From an uncultured Planctomycetales bacterium (lineage in GTDB: Bacteria > Planctomycetota > Phycisphaerae > UBA1845 > PWPN01): DNA of 64,000 bases. The notes under the pieces were generated by a model. It worked only from the letters and a program-made list of their open reading frames with translations. It ran no database searches and had not been told where the DNA came from. Made by a program: the position numbers and the translations under genes. Location: contig CAZPIO010000004.1 in the NCBI GenBank assembly GCA_964586235.1, positions 8,402 through 72,401 on the forward strand, given 5' to 3'. Below, piece after piece: positions 1 through 9,548 of the stretch (position 1 is its first letter; every line of letters begins with the position of its first letter).

Positions 1-716
1 GGCCCGCAACAGAGCAGCCCCTGCTCCAACAGGCACTTGTCCGGGTCGGGAATGATCTCCCAGGTGCGTTTGAAGCCCTTGATCTTTTTCTCTTCCCGCT
101 TCCGCTCGCACTCATCGCAAACCGTGGTCTGAGCCCCGATCACGGAACCGGGCGGCGGCAGCTTGCCCTCGAGTATCGCCACGACCGCGTCCCAGATGCG
201 CGGTGCTTCCGGAGGACAGCCCGGAAGGTAGTAGTCCACGGCCACCGTCTGCCCGAGCGTTCGAAGCGTGTCGTAGAAGACCGGCAGCGTCAGATGGAAC
301 CCGTTGACCTGCGTCTCCGGCAGGGGCACGACGCCCTCAGGATTGTCAGCCGAGGGGCTCTCGAGGTAGCAGGCCTCGAAGATCTCCTTGCGGTTCGTGA
401 GGTTGGCCAGGCCGGGGATGCAGCCCTCGGACGCGCAAGAACCGAAGGCCACCAGGACTTTCGACTTCTGCCGCAACAGCCGGGCCATGTATTCCTGCTC
501 GCTGGTGCGAATGCCGCCGTTGAACAGGCAGACGTCGATGGCCCCGTCGGCCATTCTCTCGATGTCGCGGGCCTTGGTATCCATGATGCACGGGCAGAAC
601 ACGATGTCGAAGGCATTGGCGACGTCGAGGATCTTCTCGTTCAGAGCGAGGATCGAGATCTCGCATCCGCCGCAGGATGCGGCCCAGTAAATGGCGAGTT
701 TGCCCTTGTCACTCAT
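1..716 (-). CDS. mvhG: MvhG-like [NiFe]-hydrogenase small (FeS) subunit, 3' end truncated by the window edge
   Basis: Absent from the ORF track because no stop lies in the window. Manual translation from the ATG at 716 gives MSDKGKLAIYWAASCGGCEISIL...FNGGIR...AFGSCASEGCIPGLAN...LPGCPPE...TVCDEC...CLLEQGLLCCG. The ATG overlaps the mvhD stop (ATGA). Confidence 0.9.
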   Translation of the reverse strand, partial: MSDKGKLAIYWAASCGGCEISILALNEKILDVANAFDIVFCPCIMDTKARDIERMADGAIDVCLFNGGIRTSEQEYMARLLRQKSKVLVAFGSCASEGCIPGLANLTNRKEIFEACYLESPSADNPEGVVPLPETQVNGFHLTLPVFYDTLRTLGQTVAVDYYLPGCPPEAPRIWDAVVAILEGKLPPPGSVIGAQTTVCDECERKREEKKIKGFKRTWEIIPDPDKCLLEQGLLCCG

Positions 717-1210
717 TGCGGCACCTCCATGGCTTCCGCGTGCTCGTGCAGAATCTTCTCCACGTCATCCAGATGCGCGCCGTCCTCGGCCCAGTTCCGC
801 GACCAGTTGAGCGGGCCGAGCGTGCGGACGTCCTCGACCATCTCGTCGATCGCCTCGGCCAGGTGGGTTGCCTCGCCGGCCGAGGCCCAGACCAGCCGGA
901 CCCGCCTGGGATCGATCCCCAGGCCCTCCAGCGTGTGCTTGAGCATGGTGAACCGCCGGATGGTCTTGTAGTTCTGTTCGATGTAGTGGCACTCTCCGGG
1001 GTGGCAGCCGGCGATCAACACCCCGTCGGCCCCGAGCGAAAGGGCCTTGAGGATGAAGGTGATGTCCACCCGCCCGCTGCACATCAGGCGGATGACCCGG
1101 ACGTTCGGCGAATGCTTGATCCTCGCCGTGCCCGCTCCGTCGGCGGCCCGGTACGAGCACCAGTTGCAGAAGAAGCCGACGATCTTCGGTTCGAACTGTT
1201 CCCGCTGCAT
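713..1210 (-). CDS. mvhD: MvhD/FlpD-type [2Fe-2S] hydrogenase delta subunit
   Basis: FEPKIVGFFCNWCSY, MCSGRV and GCHPGECHY motifs. Start moved from the track's 1375 to the ATG at 1210, which has a TAGGAG RBS overlapping the hdrA stop. Confidence 0.93.
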   Translation of the reverse strand: MQREQFEPKIVGFFCNWCSYRAADGAGTARIKHSPNVRVIRLMCSGRVDITFILKALSLGADGVLIAGCHPGECHYIEQNYKTIRRFTMLKHTLEGLGIDPRRVRLVWASAGEATHLAEAIDEMVEDVRTLGPLNWSRNWAEDGAHLDDVEKILHEHAEAMEVPQ

Positions 1211-1220
1211 GACAAGACTC

Positions 1221-3278
1221 CTACACAATAGCCGGCTCGGACGGCGTCTCGGCCGGACCGGGTGCCGCTTCGGTCCCTCCACCCGTATCCCGAAGAAGGC
1301 CTTCAAGCTCGGCCAGGATCTGCGTATTGCTGAAGTGGGCCCCGGTGATGGCCCCGGCCGGACAGGCCGCCACACAGGTGCCGCAACCTTTGCACAGCAC
1401 CGCGTTGACTTTGCTCACCTTATCGTCTTCGACGAACTCGATCGCGCCGAACGGGCACAGGTTGTTGCAGATGCGGCATCCCGAGCAATGGTCGGCGTCG
1501 ATGGTGGCGACCACCGGCTCGATCAGGACCGTTCCCTTGCTGATCATGCCGTCCACACGTGCCGCCGCCGCAGCTCCCTGGGCCACGGCGTCGGGGATGT
1601 CCTTGGGACCCTGGCAGGCGCCGGCGATGAAGATCCCTTCGGTCATGGTCCCGATCGGGTCGAGCTTCGGGTGACGCTCGATGTACCAGCCCGCCATGCT
1701 GCACGAGATCCCGACCTTGAGCCCCGTCTCACGGGCGTCGCGGCGCGGTTCGAGAGCCCCCATGAGCACCACCATGTCCACCGGGAGCCGCCGCTGCTTG
1801 CGCAGCAGCGTGTCCTCGACCTGAACAATGAGCTTGCCTTCCTCGCTTGGCGAGCGGGCCACCTCGGTGACTTCGGCCACCTTGCCCCGGATGAAGAGCA
1901 TGCCCTCGGCCAGCAGCCGCCAATAGAACTCCTCGTAGTCCTTCTTGTTGGGACGCATGTCGATGTAGCAGGCGTACACTTTCGCCTCGGTCTTCTCCAT
2001 GACCAGGTGGCCCAGCTTCAGCGACAGCATGCAGCAGATGCTCGAACAGTAGGTGTTGTAGCGCTGGTCCCGGCTGCCAACGCAATGCACGATGCACACC
2101 GATTTCGGCTCGGTCACGCCATCGCGAAGCACGATGCGGCCGCCGGTGGGGCCGGAGGCGTTGCACATCCGCTCGAACTCCAGGCTGGTGAACACGTTGG
2201 CCAGACGGCCGTAGCCGTACTGTGGGATGCGCCGGCAGTCGAACATGTCCCAGCCAGTCGCCAGGATGATGTTGCCGACGTCGACCTCGAGTATCTCGTC
2301 CTGCTGTTCGAAGTCGATGGCATTGGTGGGGCAGACCTTCTCGCAGACCCGGCACTTGCCGCGCTCGAACCAGATGCAGGCCTTCGTGTCAATCACCGGG
2401 ATCTTCGGGACCGCCTGCGGAAACGGCGTGTAGATCGCCTTGCGGTATCCCATCCCTGCCTCGAAATCCTCGTCGACGGTTTTGCGAGGGCATTTCTCGA
2501 TGCACAGCCCGCAACCGGTGCAGGTCTCATCCTTGACGTGGCGTGCTTTCTTGCGGATGCGGACGTGGAAGTTGCCGATCGAGCCGGACACCTCCTCCAG
2601 CTCCGAGTAGGTCAGCAGCTTGATGTTGTCGTGCTGTCCGACCTCCGACATCTTGGGCGTCAGAATGCAGGCAGCGCAGTCGAGGGTCGGGAACGTCTTG
2701 TCGTACTGGGCCATGTGGCCGCCGATGCTGGGATCGCGCTCCACCAGGTACACCGGGTAGCCGGCGTCGCCCAGTTCCAGCGCCGCCTGGATGCCGGCGA
2801 TACCCCCGCCCACCACGAGCGTGTGCGGGTTGACCGCAACGGGCATCGGCTCCAGCGGCTGGTGGTGCTTGACCCGCTCGACGGCCCCGGCCACGAGCGA
2901 TTTGACCTTGTCCGTCGCCGTCTCCTTGTGCTTGGTCACCCAGGAGACGTGCTCGCGGATATTGGACATCTGCAGCAGGAACGGGTTCAGGCCCGCGTTC
3001 GCGCAGGCACGGCGAAACGTCTTCTCGTGCAGATGGGGCGAACACGCCGCCACCACCACGCGAGTCAGGCCGTGCTCCTTGACGTCGTCCCGGATCATGG
3101 TCTGCCCGAGCGAGGAGCAGAGGAACTTGTAATCCCGCGACACGACCACCCCGTCCAGATTCTCACCCGCCCAGCGGGCGACCTCCTCGACGTCAACCAC
3201 CGCGGCGATATTACTGCCGCAATGGCAGACGTAAACGCCCACTCGCTCTTTCTCTTTGTGGCATTCTTGTCCAGCCAT
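1221..3278 (-). CDS. hdrA: Heterodisulfide reductase subunit A family FAD/FeS protein
   Basis: GVYVCHCGSNI, VVAACSP, GGGIAG Rossmann motif, FPTLDCAACILTPKM, inserted ferredoxin (CTGCGLCIEKCP, CRVCEKVCP), HCVGSRD, CSSICCM and a C-terminal ferredoxin (CSGCRICNNLCP, CKGCGTCVAACP). The ATG at 3278 has an AGGAGG RBS. Confidence 0.95.
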   Translation of the reverse strand: MAGQECHKEKERVGVYVCHCGSNIAAVVDVEEVARWAGENLDGVVVSRDYKFLCSSLGQTMIRDDVKEHGLTRVVVAACSPHLHEKTFRRACANAGLNPFLLQMSNIREHVSWVTKHKETATDKVKSLVAGAVERVKHHQPLEPMPVAVNPHTLVVGGGIAGIQAALELGDAGYPVYLVERDPSIGGHMAQYDKTFPTLDCAACILTPKMSEVGQHDNIKLLTYSELEEVSGSIGNFHVRIRKKARHVKDETCTGCGLCIEKCPRKTVDEDFEAGMGYRKAIYTPFPQAVPKIPVIDTKACIWFERGKCRVCEKVCPTNAIDFEQQDEILEVDVGNIILATGWDMFDCRRIPQYGYGRLANVFTSLEFERMCNASGPTGGRIVLRDGVTEPKSVCIVHCVGSRDQRYNTYCSSICCMLSLKLGHLVMEKTEAKVYACYIDMRPNKKDYEEFYWRLLAEGMLFIRGKVAEVTEVARSPSEEGKLIVQVEDTLLRKQRRLPVDMVVLMGALEPRRDARETGLKVGISCSMAGWYIERHPKLDPIGTMTEGIFIAGACQGPKDIPDAVAQGAAAAARVDGMISKGTVLIEPVVATIDADHCSGCRICNNLCPFGAIEFVEDDKVSKVNAVLCKGCGTCVAACPAGAITGAHFSNTQILAELEGLLRDTGGGTEAAPGPAETPSEPAIV

Positions 3279-3334
3279 CGATCTGGCCTCCTGTCGGGCC
3301 GCGCGCTGCGGGCCCGCCAAACTGAAACTCGGCC

Positions 3335-5368
3335 TCAGGTGCCCGCTCTCACCTCTGCCTCGGCCGGCGCGGTCGCCGGCTCCTCGCGTGTCACCTCTTC
3401 AACCAGTTCAATCAGGTCCTTCACGATGATCCTGCGTTCGAGCCCGGCGGTCTTGACCGCATCGCGGTACATGGTCAGGTCCTTCGGGCAGGCGACCACG
3501 AAGACACCCACGCCTTCCAGTGCTGCTGCCTCGCGGATCCGATTCTCGCTGGGCCGCTCCTTGACCGTGCCCTCGTCCATCCAGATCCGCCCGCCGCCGG
3601 CCCCGCAGCACAACGCCCGGTCGCGGTTACGCGGCATCTCCACTACCCGGCAGCCGATTGCCTGCAGCACGCGCCGGGGGGCATCGTACACGTCGTTGTA
3701 ACGCCCCAGGTAGCACGGGTCGTGATAGGTGACGGCGCAGCCCAGCTTGCGCCGAATCGTCAGCGTCCCATCGGTGACGGCTCGGTCAATGAGCTCCGAG
3801 TAGTGAAGAACAGGAACGTTCCGGCCGTCCCAGGGATACTCGTTCTTCAGCGCGTTGTACGTGTGAGGGTCGGTGGTGACGATCTCCTGGAACTCGCACT
3901 TGCCCATGACCGCGGCGTTTTTCTGAGCGAGCAGTTCGAACAGTCCCTCTTCGCCGGCCCGCCTCAAATCATTCCCCGCGTTGCGCTCGCCGTCGTACAA
4001 CAGGCCGAAGTCGATCGTGGCCTGCTGAAAGACGCGGGCAGTCGCCTGGGTGATTTCGGTCAGGGCCGGACTGTACGAAGCATAGTCGCCCACAAACCAG
4101 AGGGTCCGCGCCGGCTGCTTGCGAATGTCCTTGATCTTGAAATCCAGGCCGGTTGTCCACTTGGCCCGCTGCTTGTCCGATTTGCCGAACGAGTTGCCGT
4201 ACCGCCGCAAACTCTCCAGCGCACTGGTCAGCGTCTTGTCGGCCCGCTGTTGACTCAGCAGGTACCGCCGCATGTCCACGATCGGCTGGACGTGCTCGAC
4301 GAACAGCGGACACTCCTGGTCGCAGGCGTAGCAGGTCGTGCATGCCCAGATCGCCTCATCCGCGATCGCGTCGCCCGCCAGTCGCTTCTGGAGCACCGCA
4401 TCGCGATCGGGGGAGGCACCGTCCCGGGCGACCAGCGCCCGGCCGCGTTCAAACAGATGGGCACGCAGCCCCATGATCAGCAGCTTCGGCGAGAGGACGG
4501 CACCGCTGCTGTACGCCGGGCACACGTCCTGGCACCGCCCGCACTCGCTGCATGTGTACCAGTCCAGCATCTGGCGCCAGGTGAATTGTTCGATCTTCTC
4601 CACACCTTCAGAGCCGTCGGTCCGTGCCGGGGGGGCCAGCCTGCCGGGAGGTGCCAGATTGCGCAGGAGCACGTTGAAGACCGAGGTCACGACGTGGAAA
4701 TGCTTGCCGAGGGGCAGCATCGTCAGGAAAACCAGCACGGTGCCAAGGTGGATCCACCAGCAGACGCGCTCGGCGATGTGCTGGCTGTGGGCCGACAAAC
4801 CCTCGAAGAGCTTGCCTGCCAGTGCGGAGATCGGCTGCCAGGCCCGCGGCGAGCTCGCCGCCCCGAGGTTCTGCCGGATGCCGTTCTCGCAAAGCAGCGT
4901 TACCATGATGATGAGGATGAAGCAGAGCACCAGCGTGCCTTCGCCCTGGTGACTGCCCTTGTATCGTTCCGGTCGGGCGATCAAGCGGTAGTACAGCCCG
5001 TACAGGACGCCGAGGATGACCGTCAGGGCGATCAGGTCCTGCAAGAGCAGGAACGGCGCGAAAGTCGTGAAGAACGGCAGAGCAAAACCGGGGAACAGGC
5101 CCTCCACCATGGCCTGCAGGATGGTCGGGATGAGAAGCACGAATCCCCAGAAAATGAAGAAGTGCGCCAGACCCGTCCCGGGAAAGCGGAAGATGCGCGC
5201 CTGACCGGCCACAAAGACCAGCACGGATTTCAACCGCTCGCCCCAGTTCCCGAATGGCCCGGCCGGCCGGCCCAGACGCATGTGCCGGAATCGCTGGTAT
5301 ACCCGATACCCGAAAATGCCAAACGAGACGATCAGACCCAGCAGCACCAGGACGGATGTGAGCGTCAT
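3335..5368 (-). CDS. Membrane-anchored NarI-like/FeS/CCG-domain oxidoreductase (HdrF/FadF/ETF:menaquinone oxidoreductase-like)
   Basis: Hydrophobic N-terminal helices with histidines (AHFFIFWGF, WWIHLG, KHFHV); two [4Fe-4S] motifs (CSECGRCQDVCP, CTTCYACDQECP); CCG region (YHDPCYLGR, CCGAGGG, VACP). Lies next to etfAB. The ATG at 5368 has a GAGGA RBS. Confidence 0.85.
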   Translation of the reverse strand: MTLTSVLVLLGLIVSFGIFGYRVYQRFRHMRLGRPAGPFGNWGERLKSVLVFVAGQARIFRFPGTGLAHFFIFWGFVLLIPTILQAMVEGLFPGFALPFFTTFAPFLLLQDLIALTVILGVLYGLYYRLIARPERYKGSHQGEGTLVLCFILIIMVTLLCENGIRQNLGAASSPRAWQPISALAGKLFEGLSAHSQHIAERVCWWIHLGTVLVFLTMLPLGKHFHVVTSVFNVLLRNLAPPGRLAPPARTDGSEGVEKIEQFTWRQMLDWYTCSECGRCQDVCPAYSSGAVLSPKLLIMGLRAHLFERGRALVARDGASPDRDAVLQKRLAGDAIADEAIWACTTCYACDQECPLFVEHVQPIVDMRRYLLSQQRADKTLTSALESLRRYGNSFGKSDKQRAKWTTGLDFKIKDIRKQPARTLWFVGDYASYSPALTEITQATARVFQQATIDFGLLYDGERNAGNDLRRAGEEGLFELLAQKNAAVMGKCEFQEIVTTDPHTYNALKNEYPWDGRNVPVLHYSELIDRAVTDGTLTIRRKLGCAVTYHDPCYLGRYNDVYDAPRRVLQAIGCRVVEMPRNRDRALCCGAGGGRIWMDEGTVKERPSENRIREAAALEGVGVFVVACPKDLTMYRDAVKTAGLERRIIVKDLIELVEEVTREEPATAPAEAEVRAGT

Positions 5369-5405
5369 GACACGATCCTCTGCAAGTCCCAACAGCGCGG
5401 CCGCC

Positions 5406-6377
5406 CTAAGCCCGGTTCAGCTTCTCCACCAGTACCGGCATGAGTTTGAGTGCGTCACAGGTCGTGCCGTAGTGAGCGACGTCGAAGATGGGTGCTTTCG
5501 CGTCGGTATTGATGCCGATCATCAGATCGGCGTCCGGAACGCCTTCCACGTGCTCCGGCGCGCCGCTGATGCCGAGTGCCAGGTAGAGCTTGGGCTTGAC
5601 CTGCTTGCCGGACTTGCCGACCAGCCGGGTCATGGGCAACCACCCCTGGTCGATCACCGGGCGAGACCCCGCGACCACGCCGCCCAGCGCCTTCGCCAGC
5701 CTTTCGGCGAGGGCAACATTCTCCTTGTTCTGCATCCCGCGTCCCACCGAAACGAGGATCGCCTGCTTGGAGATGTCCACGTCCCCGGCCGGCGGCTCGA
5801 TGTACTGCTTGAAGCGGGTGCGGGCGGCGTCGAGATCGGCGGGCGCGGGCAGGCTCTCTACCGCCGAGGCCCTCGCGACCTTGCCCTCGTCGGCCTTGTA
5901 GCCCCCCGTCATGACGGTTGCCAGACAGCTTGGTGGCGGAAGGGGCCCTTCGGCGATGATCTTGCCGCCGCAGATCAAGCTGGAGTAAACCGGATTGTCG
6001 CCGACGACGGCAAATGTCCTGCACGAGACGGCGATCGGCAGGCCAAGCCGCTGGGCCACTCCACAGGCCAGATCCGTGCCCATCGCGGTGTGCCCGAAGA
6101 GTCCGATCCGCGGTTTCTGCCCGCCGAAAGCGTCCGCGACCACTCGAAGAAAGGCGTCCGGGTTGAACTCGGCCAGCGCGGCATGATCCACGCACAGCAC
6201 CCGGTCAGCAGCCCCCAACGCTCCCGCCATCTTCTGGACCTCGTGCCCGATCAGCAGGGCCGAGAGCTTGGTCTTCAGCCCGTCAGCCAGTCGACGCCCG
6301 GCGGCGAGCATCGTGCACGTCAGTTCGGTCACTTCGCCTCGAAGAGTCTCGACGACAACGCAGACTTCGCCAGTCAT
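5406..6377 (-). CDS. etfA: Electron transfer flavoprotein alpha subunit
   Basis: LVSVGRG, VAGSRPVID, LVGKSGKQVKPKLYLALGISGAPEH and INTDAKAPIF motifs. Start set at 6377 (GGGAG RBS); the track gives 6392. Confidence 0.93.
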   Translation of the reverse strand: MTGEVCVVVETLRGEVTELTCTMLAAGRRLADGLKTKLSALLIGHEVQKMAGALGAADRVLCVDHAALAEFNPDAFLRVVADAFGGQKPRIGLFGHTAMGTDLACGVAQRLGLPIAVSCRTFAVVGDNPVYSSLICGGKIIAEGPLPPPSCLATVMTGGYKADEGKVARASAVESLPAPADLDAARTRFKQYIEPPAGDVDISKQAILVSVGRGMQNKENVALAERLAKALGGVVAGSRPVIDQGWLPMTRLVGKSGKQVKPKLYLALGISGAPEHVEGVPDADLMIGINTDAKAPIFDVAHYGTTCDALKLMPVLVEKLNRA

Positions 6378-6392
6378 GATGATATCTCCCAT

Positions 6393-7163
6393 CTACGCGA
6401 CCACGCCGCGATCGCGCAATAAGCCCGCAAGAGTCTCCGCAACCTTCTGGACATCTCCCTCGATCATCTCCGCGTGGGCGCCGGTCTCGGGAACGGACAT
6501 CCGCGAGACCGTTACACCGCCCTCGACCGCCTCGCCGCTCGCCTCCGCCTCGTCGATCGTGGCCGACTTCATTGCCTCCATCACCTTGCTGGTCACGATG
6601 TACCGGGGCGGCTTTTCGGCGGCCTGGATGCCAAGGACGGCCGGCTTGTTCACCTCGATGTCGGCGTTCAGCCCGCCCGGGTATTCCTTGCGGGCGATGA
6701 CTGTTCCGTTCCGGGCTTCGACCCTGGTGACGTAGCCGACGTAGGGCAGGCCCATCTCCTCGGCGAGCAGGGCCCCCACGAATCCGTCCAGATCATCCAC
6801 CGCCTGCGTTCCGGTCAGGATCAGATCGCAGGATGTCTCTTTCAAAACGTCCTGGAAGATCGAACTTAACCTCCGGTTGCTCACTCCCTGGTCGAAACCT
6901 TCGCCGGTGATCTTGACCACCTTGTCTGCCCCCTTGGCCACGGCGGTATACAGGGTCTCATCCACGTCACCGGAGTCGATTGTCAGCACGGTGACCGTTC
7001 CGCCGTGCCGCTCCTTGAGCAGCAGGGCTTCCTCCAGAGCGTGGTCATCCAGCTCGTTGGGGATCAACCGCAGGAACGATCGGTCCAGCAGCCCCGACTG
7101 AGAGTCGATCTCCAGATCTTCCACCAGGTCGGGCACGAACTTGATCAAAACAACGATATTCAT
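6393..7163 (-). CDS. etfB: Electron transfer flavoprotein beta subunit
   Basis: MNIVVLIKFVPD, NELDDHALEEAL, LILTGTQAVDD and PRY motifs; AGGAGG RBS. Confidence 0.93.
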   Translation of the reverse strand: MNIVVLIKFVPDLVEDLEIDSQSGLLDRSFLRLIPNELDDHALEEALLLKERHGGTVTVLTIDSGDVDETLYTAVAKGADKVVKITGEGFDQGVSNRRLSSIFQDVLKETSCDLILTGTQAVDDLDGFVGALLAEEMGLPYVGYVTRVEARNGTVIARKEYPGGLNADIEVNKPAVLGIQAAEKPPRYIVTSKVMEAMKSATIDEAEASGEAVEGGVTVSRMSVPETGAHAEMIEGDVQKVAETLAGLLRDRGVVA

Positions 7164-7174
7164 CGCGCTGCCTC

Positions 7175-8368
7175 CTAGCCGAAAGCGGCTTCCGCAAGAA
7201 GTTCGACCACGTCCTTCACGACCAGCTTGCCTTCATTGCCGGTGCTCTTGACCGCGTCCTCGAATCGAGGCGTCTCGTAGGGGCAAGCGACGGCCAGTAC
7301 GTCGGCACCCGCAGCGATGGCCTCGCGTACACGCCATTCGGAGGTGCGGGTGCCGGTCTTTTCCCACGAGAAACCGTCCAGCCACATCCCGCCGCCCCCG
7401 CCCCCGCAGCAGATGCTCAAGGCCCGGTTGTGCGACATCTCCACCAGTTCCACCCCTGGAATGGCCTGAAGGAGCTGGCGCGGCTCCTCGTAGATGTTGT
7501 TCTCGTTCGCACGGCCGAGATAGCACGGGTCATGATAGGTCACCCGCATCGGCCCCCGGTTCTTCAGCCAGGACCCCAACTGTTTGATGTGCTCGAGCAG
7601 GAACTGTGTGTGATGCTTCACAGGGAAATTGAGCCGGAGGCGGGGATATTCGTACTTCAGAGCGTTGTACGCGTGCGGGTCGGCGGTCAGTATCTCCTTG
7701 AACGTGTATTTGGCCATGGCCTTGGCGTTCTTGCGGGCGAGCAGCTCAAACAGGCCCCACTCGCCGGTGAACGCCTGCGTGTCCCCGTCGCTGCTCTCCT
7801 CCGGGCCAAGGATGCCGAAATTCACCCTGAGCACGTGCAGGACCTTGGCCATCGCCTTGGTGACCAACTGGACGCGTGGGTGATAGGAGCCGTAATCGCC
7901 GACGAACCACAGCACGTCTACGGGTTCCTTGTGGTTGGCCAGTATTGGCACCGGCACGGTGAAATCCTTGGTCCAGTCGGCCCGCTTCCGCGGCGACTCG
8001 CCGAGGGCGTTGCCGTAACGGCGGGAGTTGCTCAGTGCGGTCTGCAGCTCCTGCGGGATGCTCCCGCCGACGAGCATTTCCGTCTTCAGCGTCGCCAGCA
8101 GCCCCCGGGTCAGCGGGATCTTGACCGGGCAGACGCTTGCGCAGGCAAAGCAGGAGACACACAGCCAGATGGTGTCGCTCTCCAGCACCCCGTGCCAGTC
8201 GTCGGCCCGGAGGGCGGCGATCAGCGACCGGGGCGGGTGGTCCATGGCAAATCCGTATGGACAAATGCCGCTGCATGTCCCACACTGGAGACATTTGCGG
8301 ATGTATTCGCCGTCGGGGGTAGCCCGGATCACCTTGTCGAGAAACTCGTATGAGGTCATGACCGACAT
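7175..8368 (-). CDS. Soluble HdrD-like (Fe-S)-binding protein (HdrC-like ferredoxin plus CCG region)
   Basis: CLQCGTCSGICP and CVSCFACASVCP ferredoxin motifs, then YHDPCYLGR, ICCGGGGG and VACPYE. GAGGTG RBS. First gene of the operon. Confidence 0.88.
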   Translation of the reverse strand: MSVMTSYEFLDKVIRATPDGEYIRKCLQCGTCSGICPYGFAMDHPPRSLIAALRADDWHGVLESDTIWLCVSCFACASVCPVKIPLTRGLLATLKTEMLVGGSIPQELQTALSNSRRYGNALGESPRKRADWTKDFTVPVPILANHKEPVDVLWFVGDYGSYHPRVQLVTKAMAKVLHVLRVNFGILGPEESSDGDTQAFTGEWGLFELLARKNAKAMAKYTFKEILTADPHAYNALKYEYPRLRLNFPVKHHTQFLLEHIKQLGSWLKNRGPMRVTYHDPCYLGRANENNIYEEPRQLLQAIPGVELVEMSHNRALSICCGGGGGGMWLDGFSWEKTGTRTSEWRVREAIAAGADVLAVACPYETPRFEDAVKSTGNEGKLVVKDVVELLAEAAFG

Positions 8369-8460
8369 CTTGGGACACCTCGCGTTTGGAGGAGCTGCAT
8401 GCGCTCCCGATGATGGACGGACCGCGTTTTACGCGCTGAAACCGGCTCTTGCCGACTGCC

Positions 8461-8565
8461 CGCGCAACAACAACGACAGCGGGGCGCCGCGCCGACCGGA
8501 ACTGACTGGCCACCCGATTGACGCGCTTCGGGCCTGCCCCGCTGTCGTTTACAGGATGTTGCGCG
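8461..8565. other. Large imperfect inverted repeat in the operon leader
   Basis: CGCGCAACA (8461-8469) pairs with TGTTGCGCG (8557-8565). AACGACAGCGGGGC (8472-8485) pairs perfectly with GCCCCGCTGTCGTT (8536-8549). The loop is 50 nt. Confidence 0.75.
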
Positions 8566-8767
8566 AAGGCTTCCCGAAGCAGGGCGTCGATGGCCAATCT
8601 CAGCCCGGCGGATGTCAGTCCCGCGGCCAGTCCCCGGTTCGTGAATCCGTGATGAAACGCATCGCGCACAGCCTGTCGTTTGTTGGGTGTGCTGAGGGTT
8701 CAGAGATGAACCACGCGGCGTCGAGAGCCGGTGATCAAGGTCGCCAGATACGGCGCGCACGCTCCAC

Positions 8768-8795
8768 GTAGCCATGGGGTGGCCTCCCACGGCTT
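8768..8795 (+). repeat. Single GTAG-headed REP-like hairpin
   Basis: GTAGCCATGGGGTGGCCTCCCACGGCT; the stem AGCCATGGG/CCCACGGCT resembles the arms at 25637-25717. Confidence 0.4.
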
Positions 8796-9029
8796 CGACC
8801 GGACGGTGTGCTGGTCGAGAGCCCGAAGTCTCTTTAGTCGATCGCCCGCGCACATCCTGAGCGCGCCAGCACTTCACTGGCTGCGCCCCCGCGGGCTGAG
8901 TCATCTTCAACTAACATTCAAACAAAAAACGCAGTCGACGGGCTCGCTCGGACAGACGCGAGCACTTCCGCCGGGAATTCCACCCACGCGGCCGCTCGCT
9001 TCGCCGTCGCGGATATACCTCGGCGGTCT

Positions 9030-9047
9030 TCGTGAAATCTTTCACAA
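9030..9047. promoter_or_regulatory. Rex (NADH/NAD+ sensor) operator
   Basis: TCGTGAA-ATCT-TTCACAA is one mismatch from the Rex consensus TTGTGAA-N4-TTCACAA. It abuts a -10 box upstream of a redox operon. Confidence 0.75.
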
Positions 9048-9075
9048 ATATACAGCATAACCCGCATGCATGCAA
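9047..9075 (-). promoter_or_regulatory. Sigma70-like promoter for the Hdr/Etf/Mvh operon
   Basis: Minus strand TTGCAT (9075-9070), a 17-nt spacer, then TATATT (9052-9047), within a locally AT-rich patch. Confidence 0.6.
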
Positions 9076-9211
9076 GCCAAAAGCAATAGTACGTTTTCGC
9101 CATTTAGCAGTGGATGCTTGAACCGGGTCTGAGATATATCCTCGGGGCGTGCCGGCCGGACAACCGCGGTTCCATCGAACGAGAGGCTTATACCTTGTTC
9201 CGCCCCTCGAT

Positions 9212-9548
9212 CATCGCAATTCGTGACCATGGCGTGCCTGAAGGCAAACAGGCCGGTCAACATGGATGCCCGGGCTCGGGTGCACAGACAGCAGTTCGTG
9301 TAGGCGTTGATAAAGCGGACGCCCTCACCGGCCAAACGGTCGATGTTGGGCGTCCGACAGGTCAAATTGCCGTTGCAGCCCGGCGTGTTGACGCGAAGCT
9401 GATCTACGCCAATCCAGAGAACGTTCGGGCGAGCGGCGCTGGAGGCCGTGCCGGCCGCCAACAACGCACCCGGAGACGCAAGAGGTACAAGTGCGGCGAT
9501 GACCGGCCACAGCAGCCGCCAAGCCGCCTTTGTCCTCGTCTGTCTCAA
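9212..9548 (-). pseudogene. Truncated sulfatase (N-terminal ~112 codons only)
   Basis: Signal peptide followed by RPNVLWIGVDQLR...TPNIDRLAGEGVRFINAY...CTRARASMLTG. The formylglycine motif CxPxR reads CTRAR. Similarity stops near 9212. The TTG start overlaps the upstream TGA stop. Confidence 0.85.

Follow-up and report, generated by a model that had tools for sequence, protein, structure and literature searches.

The stretch of DNA analyzed here (the window, 64,000 nucleotides from an uncultured Planctomycetales bacterium) opens with a minus-strand operon of nine genes, namely hdrB3-like, etfB, etfA, emo, hdrA, mvhD, mvhG, mvhA and hycI, of which mvhA and hycI lie just past the window edge. 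The available data favor, at a rough probability of 55%, a model in which this operon encodes an H2:ferredoxin/menaquinone electron-bifurcating, and reversibly confurcating, system built from three known modules. Every component of the operon is intact by sequence, which supports this model. The seven genes inside the window and the region upstream of them are the following.

8368..7175, minus strand: HdrD-like protein (gene 1), 397 aa, with Pfam Fer4_8/2x[4Fe-4S] and one CCG stretch
7163..6393, minus strand: EtfB, small subunit of an electron-transferring flavoprotein (ETF), predicted non-bifurcating type, 256 aa; Pfam ETF
6377..5406, minus strand: EtfA, large ETF subunit with the electron-transfer flavin adenine dinucleotide (FAD), 323 aa; Pfam ETF and ETF_alpha
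5368..3335, minus strand: EMO/EtfD-type membrane ETF:menaquinone oxidoreductase (EMO), 677 aa; CCG and Fer4
3278..1221, minus strand: HdrA, FAD/6x[4Fe-4S] flavoprotein, 685 aa; NCBIfam HdrA2
1210..713, minus strand: MvhD, [2Fe-2S] adaptor between hydrogenase and HdrA, 165 aa; Pfam FlpD, NCBIfam VhuD
716..<1, minus strand: MvhG, [NiFe]-hydrogenase small subunit, first 238 of 339 residues; Oxidored_q6, VhuG
8369..8853, minus strand: upstream leader/promoter region of the operon, 95.2% identical to locus L167 up to about 8853

The open reading frame listing and its translations give intergenic gaps, in gene order, of 11, 15, 37, 56, 10 and -4 nt. An independent gene call on L167, a sister strain (Phycisphaerae metagenome-assembled genome GCA_030372985.1, 95.2% DNA identity over window positions 4..8853), returns protein lengths equal to those of the window, and Pfam and NCBIfam searches back all seven assignments. 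The layout of seven co-oriented genes proposed in the initial annotation, with its spacings and assignments, is thereby confirmed, and matches to solved structures (E=1e-51 to 1e-214) settle the predicted folds of the operon proteins.

HdrA aligns over its full length with the Methanothermococcus HdrA 5ODC_A (717 bits, residues 9-665 to 2-653), with every cysteine motif in register and a five-residue insertion in one ferredoxin motif. The N-terminal cluster, the TrxR-like FAD domain, and both the inserted and the C-terminal 2x[4Fe-4S] ferredoxin domains are present. The LEFER and CCMxxLK segments that had been singled out from the sequence are also in place, as LEFERM and CCMLSLK align to LELERM (E356) and CCMYAMK (K409) of 5ODC_A. 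In the M. thermolithotrophicus HdrA described by Wagner et al. in 2017, K409 and E356 reportedly lie at the bifurcating FAD. A role for a lysine at this flavin is further supported by Lys280 of BamE, the HdrA-like subunit of class II benzoyl-CoA reductase (bioRxiv 10.64898/2026.04.10.717634). The NCBIfam HdrA2 score of 804 bits falls below the cut-off of 1100 because the MvhD part is a separate gene. On these features, HdrA reads as a complete, bifurcation-type HdrA.

The hydrogenase genes extend beyond the window. MvhD covers the whole Pfam FlpD model (1-123/123, 167 bits), and contig L001, which is 100% identical, completes MvhG at 339 aa and continues into a gene for a [NiFe] large subunit, the product of which begins MTARHVTIDPITRLEGHGK...RGFE. 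Downstream in L167 follow MvhA (494 aa, with RICGVC and DPCFGC), the protease HycI, a cNMP-binding protein and a response regulator. MvhA scores 372-379 bits, about equally, to 5ODC_F and to 7T2R_D, the large subunit of the bifurcating NiFe-HydABCSL, and its best NCBIfam match is VhuA. By gene content (FlpD plus small and large subunit beside hdrA) the enzyme fits group 3c (Mvh/Vhu type); its scores all fall below the NCBIfam equivalog cut-offs (VhuA 377/800, VhuG 173/450 on a partial sequence, VhuD 124/215). The alternative set beforehand, in which the gene past base 1 would encode a BamB/W-AOR-type subunit of a class II benzoyl-CoA reductase, fails on both contigs: the downstream genes are mvhG, mvhA and hycI, and a Pfam scan of the window genes returned nothing Bam-like (BamB, BamC, BamGHI).

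The protein that would connect this flavoprotein-hydrogenase unit to ETF is gene 1, whose motifs identify it as an HdrC-HdrB fusion of the sHdrB3/BamD type; it carries two cubane [4Fe-4S] motifs and a single non-cubane site. It matches residues 387-742 of the M. smegmatis EtfD (MsEtfD, PDB 9OJN) at E=4e-51, with HdrC matched as well, and no transmembrane segment was found in its product. In the alignment to 9OJN, the ligands of the distal cluster are replaced by D/S/D/A, and the proximal ligands C, CC, C and H are retained, with CxxE. The motif CPYExPRFEDA is kept in all relatives. The gene also has the defining features of sHdrB3, the subunit of a sulfur-metabolizing Hdr-like (sHdr) system: it encodes a soluble HdrC-HdrB fusion with one non-cubane site and stands directly before etfAB-emo, and it is 46% identical to the B3 protein of the type II sHdr cluster in L005. 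Gene 1 and the soluble half of EMO from the same operon are paralogues; they share 38% identity, the loss of the same distal site and the same CxxD/E motif. As such, gene 1 is predicted to serve as the high-potential output subunit on HdrA and as a docking site for ETF. There is no exact protein match on record to the window's own HdrD-like protein; its cluster member leads to the L167 contig.

This changes how the absence of HdrB and HdrC, part of the original claim, is to be understood. It holds for separate genes, since tblastn with HdrC and HdrB of a relative found none within the 64 kb window. However, gene 1 is itself a fusion of the two and most relatives carry separate HdrC and HdrB, so that HdrBC function is probably not missing.

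The membrane protein matches MsEtfD over both its membrane and its soluble domains (E=5e-100) and has five hydrophobic helices in a NarI-like heme-b domain. Specifically, H69, H225 and H207 align to H78, H241 and H223 of MsEtfD and are invariant in 12 relatives. H69 and H225 are the heme ligands and H207 is the distal histidine, with counterparts in MsEtfD and the S. aciditrophicus EMO (SaEMO), and R278, also invariant among relatives, aligns to the arginine that contacts the propionate (ligands as given in the EtfD paper, PMC13083937, and in the preprint on the S. aciditrophicus EMO). The cubane motif CxxCxxCxxxC occurs twice, both copies retained. Of the non-cubane ligands, the proximal C552, C587, C588, C627 and H502 are kept and the last cysteine (MsEtfD C712) is replaced by Asp630 (CxxD), and the distal C503, C538, C581 and C584 have all given way to D, N, D and T. 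This pattern of a lost distal site and CxxD marks a separate EMO subfamily, which the window shares with Chloroflexota and Zixibacteria and with part of the Proteobacteria. The window EMO is only 33-38% identical to actinobacterial EtfD, and the canonical actinobacterial type retains the distal cysteines. The S. aciditrophicus EMO preprint describes the distal cluster as variable, [3Fe-4S] in MsEtfD and [4Fe-5S] in SaEMO. With emo adjoining etfBA, the window EMO is predicted to reduce menaquinone from ETF.

Two side observations concern the EMO family. EMOs without distal ligands and with CxxD also stand with EtfBA alone in L009, L011 (Mesorhizobium norvegicum), L012, L101, L104-L106 and L109, which belong to Alpha- and other Proteobacteria, one of them an aerobic rhizobium; the EMO/EtfD literature, in the portions available, does not discuss this type with one non-cubane cluster beyond noting that the distal cluster varies. 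In L095 (4745-6700), an EMO beside compact-form genes is only 53% identical to the window's and groups with Anaerolineales-type loci in a neighbor-joining tree; its neighbors are far closer to the window (HdrD-like 84, EtfB 78, EtfA 73, HdrA 86, MvhD 79 and MvhG 84%), and it seems that only the emo gene was exchanged.

The flavoprotein that would link gene 1 and EMO is predicted not to be a bifurcating ETF. EtfA contains Pfam ETF and ETF_alpha (1-80/81) with an intact electron-transfer FAD domain and scores 169 bits to the bifurcating 5OL2_A. However, where bifurcating ETFs carry an arginine at the bifurcating flavin (5OL2 R136, in TRPAFGGN; 99% conserved among them), the window has serine, and all 22 family members examined have serine or alanine. 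EtfB has its best PDB match in the AMP-binding W3A1 ETF 1O94_C, and its segment DDLDGFVGA aligns where bifurcating ETFs carry DGDTAQVGP, a segment present in no family member's EtfB. DGDTAQVGP, visible in 5OL2_B and 6FAH_B, contacts the second FAD. A bifurcating or NADH-dependent ETF is rejected on these two features, and NADH is therefore unlikely as a fourth coupling partner. The coupling of H2, ferredoxin, ETF/NADH and quinone foreseen in the initial annotation is accordingly best supported in its H2-ferredoxin-ETF-quinone part. It is more probable that the ETF itself moves back and forth between two paralogous docking domains than that it is a permanent subunit.

These features are compatible with the following course of events. 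MvhAG would oxidize H2, and MvhD would hand single electrons to the FAD of HdrA, which would bifurcate them. The low-potential electron would exit through the HdrA ferredoxin domains to ferredoxin, and the high-potential electron would enter the HdrC-like cubane pair of the HdrD-like protein and proceed to its single non-cubane cluster. The HdrD-like protein would thus fill the place of HdrBC in methanogens, of sHdrB3 in type II sHdr (where this role is itself proposed) and of BamD in class II benzoyl-CoA reductase. Its non-cubane cluster would reduce the FAD of the dedicated non-bifurcating EtfAB, which would subsequently undock and re-dock on the paralogous cytoplasmic domain of EMO, where two cubanes and heme b would pass the electrons to menaquinone. 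Menaquinone would in this way serve as the high-potential acceptor instead of CoM-S-S-CoB, the heterodisulfide of coenzymes M and B, and at about -74 mV (PMC10734219) it can replace CoM-S-S-CoB energetically.

The gene arrangement was traced in 80 genome and 80 metagenome loci with an EMO alignment, plus the neighborhoods of selected homologues. Loci were scored by tblastn with all operon proteins and with HdrC, HdrB, MvhA and regulators, the four-gene module being counted as an HdrD-like protein at at least 54% identity with EtfB, EtfA and EMO; genes of the high-GC loci L005, L014 and L009 were read by targeted stop-to-stop extraction and Pfam. The layouts fall into the following groups.

Compact form (V1), module followed directly by HdrA-MvhDGA: window, L084, L085, L087, L095, L006, L167/L168
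Long form (V2), module, histidine kinase, two response regulators, then HdrC-HdrB-HdrA-MvhDGA: L086, L004, L090, L110, L008, L007, L097, L099, L100, L102
Contig stops within the histidine kinase gene: L089, L091, L098, L103
MvhA convergent: L094
HdrC-HdrB upstream of the module: L093
No link within 8 kb: L092

The module adjoins HdrA-MvhDGA in every locus with enough flank except L092, across Planctomycetota, Chloroflexota and Zixibacteria; the named sources are Chloroflexia, Anaerolineales/Anaerolineaceae, Zixibacteria, a Limnocylindrales-labelled cluster and Phycisphaerae. Most of these loci place HdrC, HdrB and a two-component system between the modules, and the window represents the compact form without them, which falls in more than one lineage in rough neighbor-joining trees. 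The gene arrangement is far beyond chance, because the same order recurs in independent loci of several phyla. A second context is provided by L005, L096 and L014, where an HdrD-like protein (46% identity), EtfBA and EMO stand beside a mini-HdrA of about 355 aa, and L005 also carries a CCG protein and two GcvH-like proteins (LbpA genes). The partner of the module is thus an HdrA-family flavoprotein in each of two independent settings, HdrA with MvhDGA in one and mini-sHdrA in the other.

Several neighboring genes accompany these loci. In V2 (L004:11977-15496, L086:12107-15653, L007, L008, L090, L110 and others) the regulators always lie between emo and hdrC and comprise a Cache/HAMP histidine kinase, a response-regulator/histidine-kinase hybrid and a single-domain response regulator. 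In the compact form of Phycisphaerae, hycI is followed by genes for a cNMP-binding protein and a response regulator (L084, L167), and L085 has a divergent cNMP-binding gene upstream. In L086 (5777-6805, minus strand) a divergent UbiA-family prenyltransferase gene lies just upstream of the HdrD-like gene, and gene diagrams in a 2021 Chloroflexi preprint include a 'ubiquinone biosynthesis protein' (bioRxiv 10.1101/2021.08.23.457424); together these are a possible hint of a quinone link.

The initial annotation had placed both modules in one operon, and their synteny across phyla, together with RNA-library contigs, bears this out for a conserved and apparently co-transcribed unit. Contigs at 3123-3358 and 3083-3343 (100% identity) bridge the emo/hdrA gap, and others span hdrA/mvhD (1158-1307), mvhD/mvhG (572-725) and etfB/etfA (6267-6618). 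The RNA runs contain 5-7% of the window's words and the contigs assembled from them are short; those that span junctions are weakly consistent with a single transcript. A consensus scan found no terminator-like site in any intergenic gap of the operon; its promoter and terminator counts stayed at shuffle level, with no convincing sigma-70 site in the leader. Metatranscriptome contigs at 8423-8591 lie about 55-220 nt ahead of the start codon of the HdrD-like gene, and this region may be a long 5' leader with a regulatory role; an Rfam search of the leader gave no match.

Several points weigh against the bifurcating hydrogenase model and have to be set beside the evidence above. The RNA contigs are unstranded mixed-community assemblies that may include DNA and derive mostly from relatives with 90-96% identity. 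Gene content and order, ligand patterns, the conserved linkage and the junction-spanning contigs are direct observations; the subunit contacts, the shuttling of ETF, the stoichiometry, the direction and the overall reaction are inferred from homology and precedent. Most relatives (V2) keep a canonical HdrC and HdrB and a two-component system between the modules, and in these a classical HdrABC-MvhADG could reduce a disulfide without ETF or EMO, with the modules as separate transcription units. HdrB and HdrC could also be encoded elsewhere in the genome, the search having covered 64 kb. Finally, in Proteobacteria such as Mesorhizobium (L009, L011, L012) the distal-less EMO subfamily has only EtfBA beside it, and ETF-EMO therefore also works without Hdr.

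The strongest of the alternatives, although we consider it unlikely, regards the operon as two independent neighbors: EtfAB-EMO with an accessory Fe-S protein, carrying electrons from flavin dehydrogenases (acyl-CoA dehydrogenases, for example) to menaquinone, and MvhADG-HdrA, with HdrBC encoded elsewhere or with another acceptor. It fits the Proteobacterial loci in which EtfBA-EMO of the same subfamily stands alone (L009, L011, L012, L101, L104-106, L109), the commoner V2 layout, in which a histidine kinase and two response regulators separate the modules and HdrCBA-MvhDGA is complete on its own, and the established role of EMO and ETF in beta-oxidation (PMC13083937). It is countered by the distribution of the soluble HdrD-like gene, which occurs only where an HdrA-family gene adjoins and is absent from the Proteobacterial EtfBA-EMO loci, and by a linkage that persists in all informative loci but one, across phyla and in both gene orders. 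Moreover, neither the operon nor the 64 kb window yielded an acyl-CoA dehydrogenase or any other dehydrogenase that depends on ETF, RNA-library contigs bridge the emo/hdrA gap, and the compact form arose in more than one lineage.

A second alternative, which we regard as improbable, is a sulfur-metabolizing Hdr-like system, in which the non-cubane cluster (and HdrB where present) would act on a protein-bound or low-molecular-weight di-, tri- or persulfide, so that H2 would be coupled to the reduction of a sulfur compound, or thiol oxidation to menaquinone, as in sHdr/DsrMK. The HdrD-like protein does group with sHdrB3 of sulfur oxidizers (46% identity, shared CPYExxRFEDA) and retains the CC pair of the CCG motif, the HdrB of V2 relatives has both CCG motifs intact in the catalytic pattern, and one-cluster CCG proteins such as DsrK are catalytic. 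However, the distal site that would hold a second thiol is completely lost, the non-cubane clusters of BamD and EMO, the two ETF-using relatives with structural studies, serve electron transfer rather than catalysis, and no LbpA, sHdrH, TusA, DsrE, rhodanese or DsrC was found in the operon or the window genes scanned, whereas L005 has LbpA. A third alternative, with ETF as the bifurcating element or NADH entry point (EtfABCX/FixABCX-like), ETF-EMO coupling NADH, ferredoxin and quinone and HdrA-Mvh as an add-on, is very improbable: the best PDB matches of EtfA are bifurcating ETFs (5OL2_A, 6FAH_A, 4KPU_A) and EtfABCX is a precedent for a quinone-linked bifurcating ETF (PMC10734219), but the arginine is Ser/Ala in every member of the window's ETF clade, EtfB has the AMP-binding match and no DGDTAQVGP, and the ETFs shown docking on EMO and BamD are non-bifurcating.

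The surroundings of the operon bear on its host. Synteny with L167 ends at about 8853, beyond which the L167 genes differ (SSF transporter, N_methyl protein), and a minus-strand open reading frame at 9042-9548 (168 aa) matches only residues 4-75 of arylsulfatase models and is a truncated sulfatase gene. The different flanks in two close strains and the adjoining gene remnant suggest a rearrangement or insertion at the upstream flank of the operon (8853-9548). According to the Pfam scan, the remainder of the window (9545-64000) is a region for the use of polysaccharides and sugar acids, with an FGGY kinase, a fucose-isomerase-like protein, a xylose-isomerase-like TIM barrel, a GH38 alpha-mannosidase, three TAT-signal Gfo/Idh/MocA-like oxidoreductases, GH67N/DUF4838, FG-GAP and BNR proteins, a DHDPS/NanA-like lyase and an SSF symporter; no Pfam match was obtained for several secreted proteins of very large size in this region. 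Metagenomes from anaerobic digesters, sludge, bioreactors and marine settings contain the sequence. A saccharolytic anaerobe is a plausible host, and the 'fermentative' cell of the initial annotation is plausible from the carbohydrate genes and the digester occurrence, although fermentation as such is not established. In a sugar degrader of anaerobic digesters, the bifurcating hydrogenase system may run in reverse, releasing reduced ferredoxin and quinol- or ETF-level electrons as H2 at low H2 pressure.

The wider proposal is more tentative, at slightly under even odds: that the operon represents a class of [NiFe] hydrogenase of its own, which splits the electrons of H2 between ferredoxin and, by way of a shuttling ETF, the membrane menaquinone pool, which is widespread in uncultured anaerobic Planctomycetota, Chloroflexota and Zixibacteria, and in which the HdrD-like protein and EMO are paralogous docks for the same ETF. 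Anoxic sediments, aquifers and digesters commonly harbor bacterial hydrogenases of the Mvh/Hdr type (group 3c), whose hosts make no coenzyme M or B. The operon offers a complete and plausible acceptor route in one apparent transcription unit, from the HdrD-like protein through ETF and EMO to menaquinone. If this is true, it would supply a physiological acceptor for enzymes that have long been puzzling without CoM-S-S-CoB, and the reverse reaction would allow fermenters and syntrophs to make H2 from quinol- or ETF-level electrons by spending reduced ferredoxin, with no need for a membrane potential. It would also extend the class II benzoyl-CoA reductase finding, HdrA bifurcation to ETF and the quinone pool, to hydrogen metabolism, and the link to type II sHdr suggests 'B3/BamD-ETF-EMO' as a general plug-in output module for HdrA-family flavoproteins. 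Models of H2 turnover and ferredoxin supply for uncultured Phycisphaerae and Anaerolineae in digesters and sediments would change as well.

The literature search found no study of an H2-linked system combining Mvh/HdrA with EMO and EtfAB, and public annotations label such proteins only "(Fe-S)-binding protein". To this extent the complex is undescribed, as had been supposed, but precedents for its neighborhood, module and wiring are published. The neighborhood appears in the 2021 Chloroflexi preprint (bioRxiv 10.1101/2021.08.23.457424), which reports an Hdr/ETF/group 3c neighborhood in Anaerolineae and Dehalococcoidia and calls it potentially bifurcating. The order given there (ETF-QO, ETF beta, ETF alpha, HdrD, HdrC2, HdrB2, HdrA2, hydrogenase Fe-S subunit, HycI) corresponds to that described here, with the same genes; the text of the preprint that was consulted presents the HdrCB-containing Chloroflexi form and no mechanism, whereas the window holds the HdrCB-less planctomycete form.

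The module has its precedent in the type II sHdr cluster of sulfur oxidizers, shdrC1B1AHB3-etfAB-emo. There sHdrB3, an HdrC2-HdrB2 fusion with one non-cubane cluster, has been suggested to stand in for sHdrC2B2 on sHdrA, with menaquinone as the proposed destination of the electrons carried by EtfAB and EMO (PMC11094781). The first four genes of the operon form the same B3-etfAB-emo module in the same order. However, their partner is a full-length six-cluster HdrA of the archaeal type (685 aa) with MvhDGA rather than an sHdrA of about 355 aa, C1B1, sHdrH, LbpA and a sulfur transferase are lacking from the operon and the window genes scanned, and the HdrD-like protein has no distal-site cysteine at all, whereas sHdr B3 proteins retain some. 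As for the membrane partner, the window EMO shares with the S. aciditrophicus EMO and MsEtfD (9OJN) the five-helix NarI-like heme-b domain, the HdrC-like and HdrB-like domains and a gene position after etfBA, and differs in the complete loss of the distal (FeS4/D1) site and in the replacement of the last proximal cysteine by Asp.

The wiring has its precedent in class II benzoyl-CoA reductase, in which the HdrA-like BamE bifurcates and sends the high-potential electron to BamD, an HdrBC fusion with two cubanes and a proximal non-cubane cluster whose distal cluster is disrupted in most homologues. In-cell tomography places a non-bifurcating ETF at the BamD non-cubane clusters, and this ETF is proposed to be reoxidized by EMO toward menaquinone (bioRxiv 10.64898/2026.04.10.717634). 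In the cryo-electron microscopy structure of EMO:ETF, the ETF docks by way of EtfB, and a distance of 12-13 Å separates its FAD from the non-cubane clusters (bioRxiv 10.64898/2026.08.18.745454). With BamBCDEFGHI of Geobacter metallireducens the operon shares HdrA-type bifurcation, an HdrBC fusion, a non-bifurcating ETF, EMO and an MvhD-like input adaptor. In contrast to Bam, its input is a [NiFe] hydrogenase instead of BamGHI (NADH and ferredoxin), its low-potential output is presumably free ferredoxin instead of the tungsten ring reductase BamBC, and ETF and EMO are encoded within the operon itself.

Methanogen MvhADG-HdrABC (5ODC), finally, offers the same full-length HdrA with its clusters and FAD-site residues and the same order of MvhD, MvhG and MvhA, after which the HycI protease is encoded here. 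The window operon departs from it in having, in place of separate HdrB and HdrC, a fusion with one non-cubane cluster, in including ETF and EMO genes, with menaquinone rather than the heterodisulfide as the predicted acceptor, and in hydrogenase subunits that score well below the NCBIfam Vhu equivalog cut-offs. Taken together, the parts are each already known, their working together as one H2-linked coupling enzyme is a prediction, and what is new is the compact planctomycete form without HdrCB.

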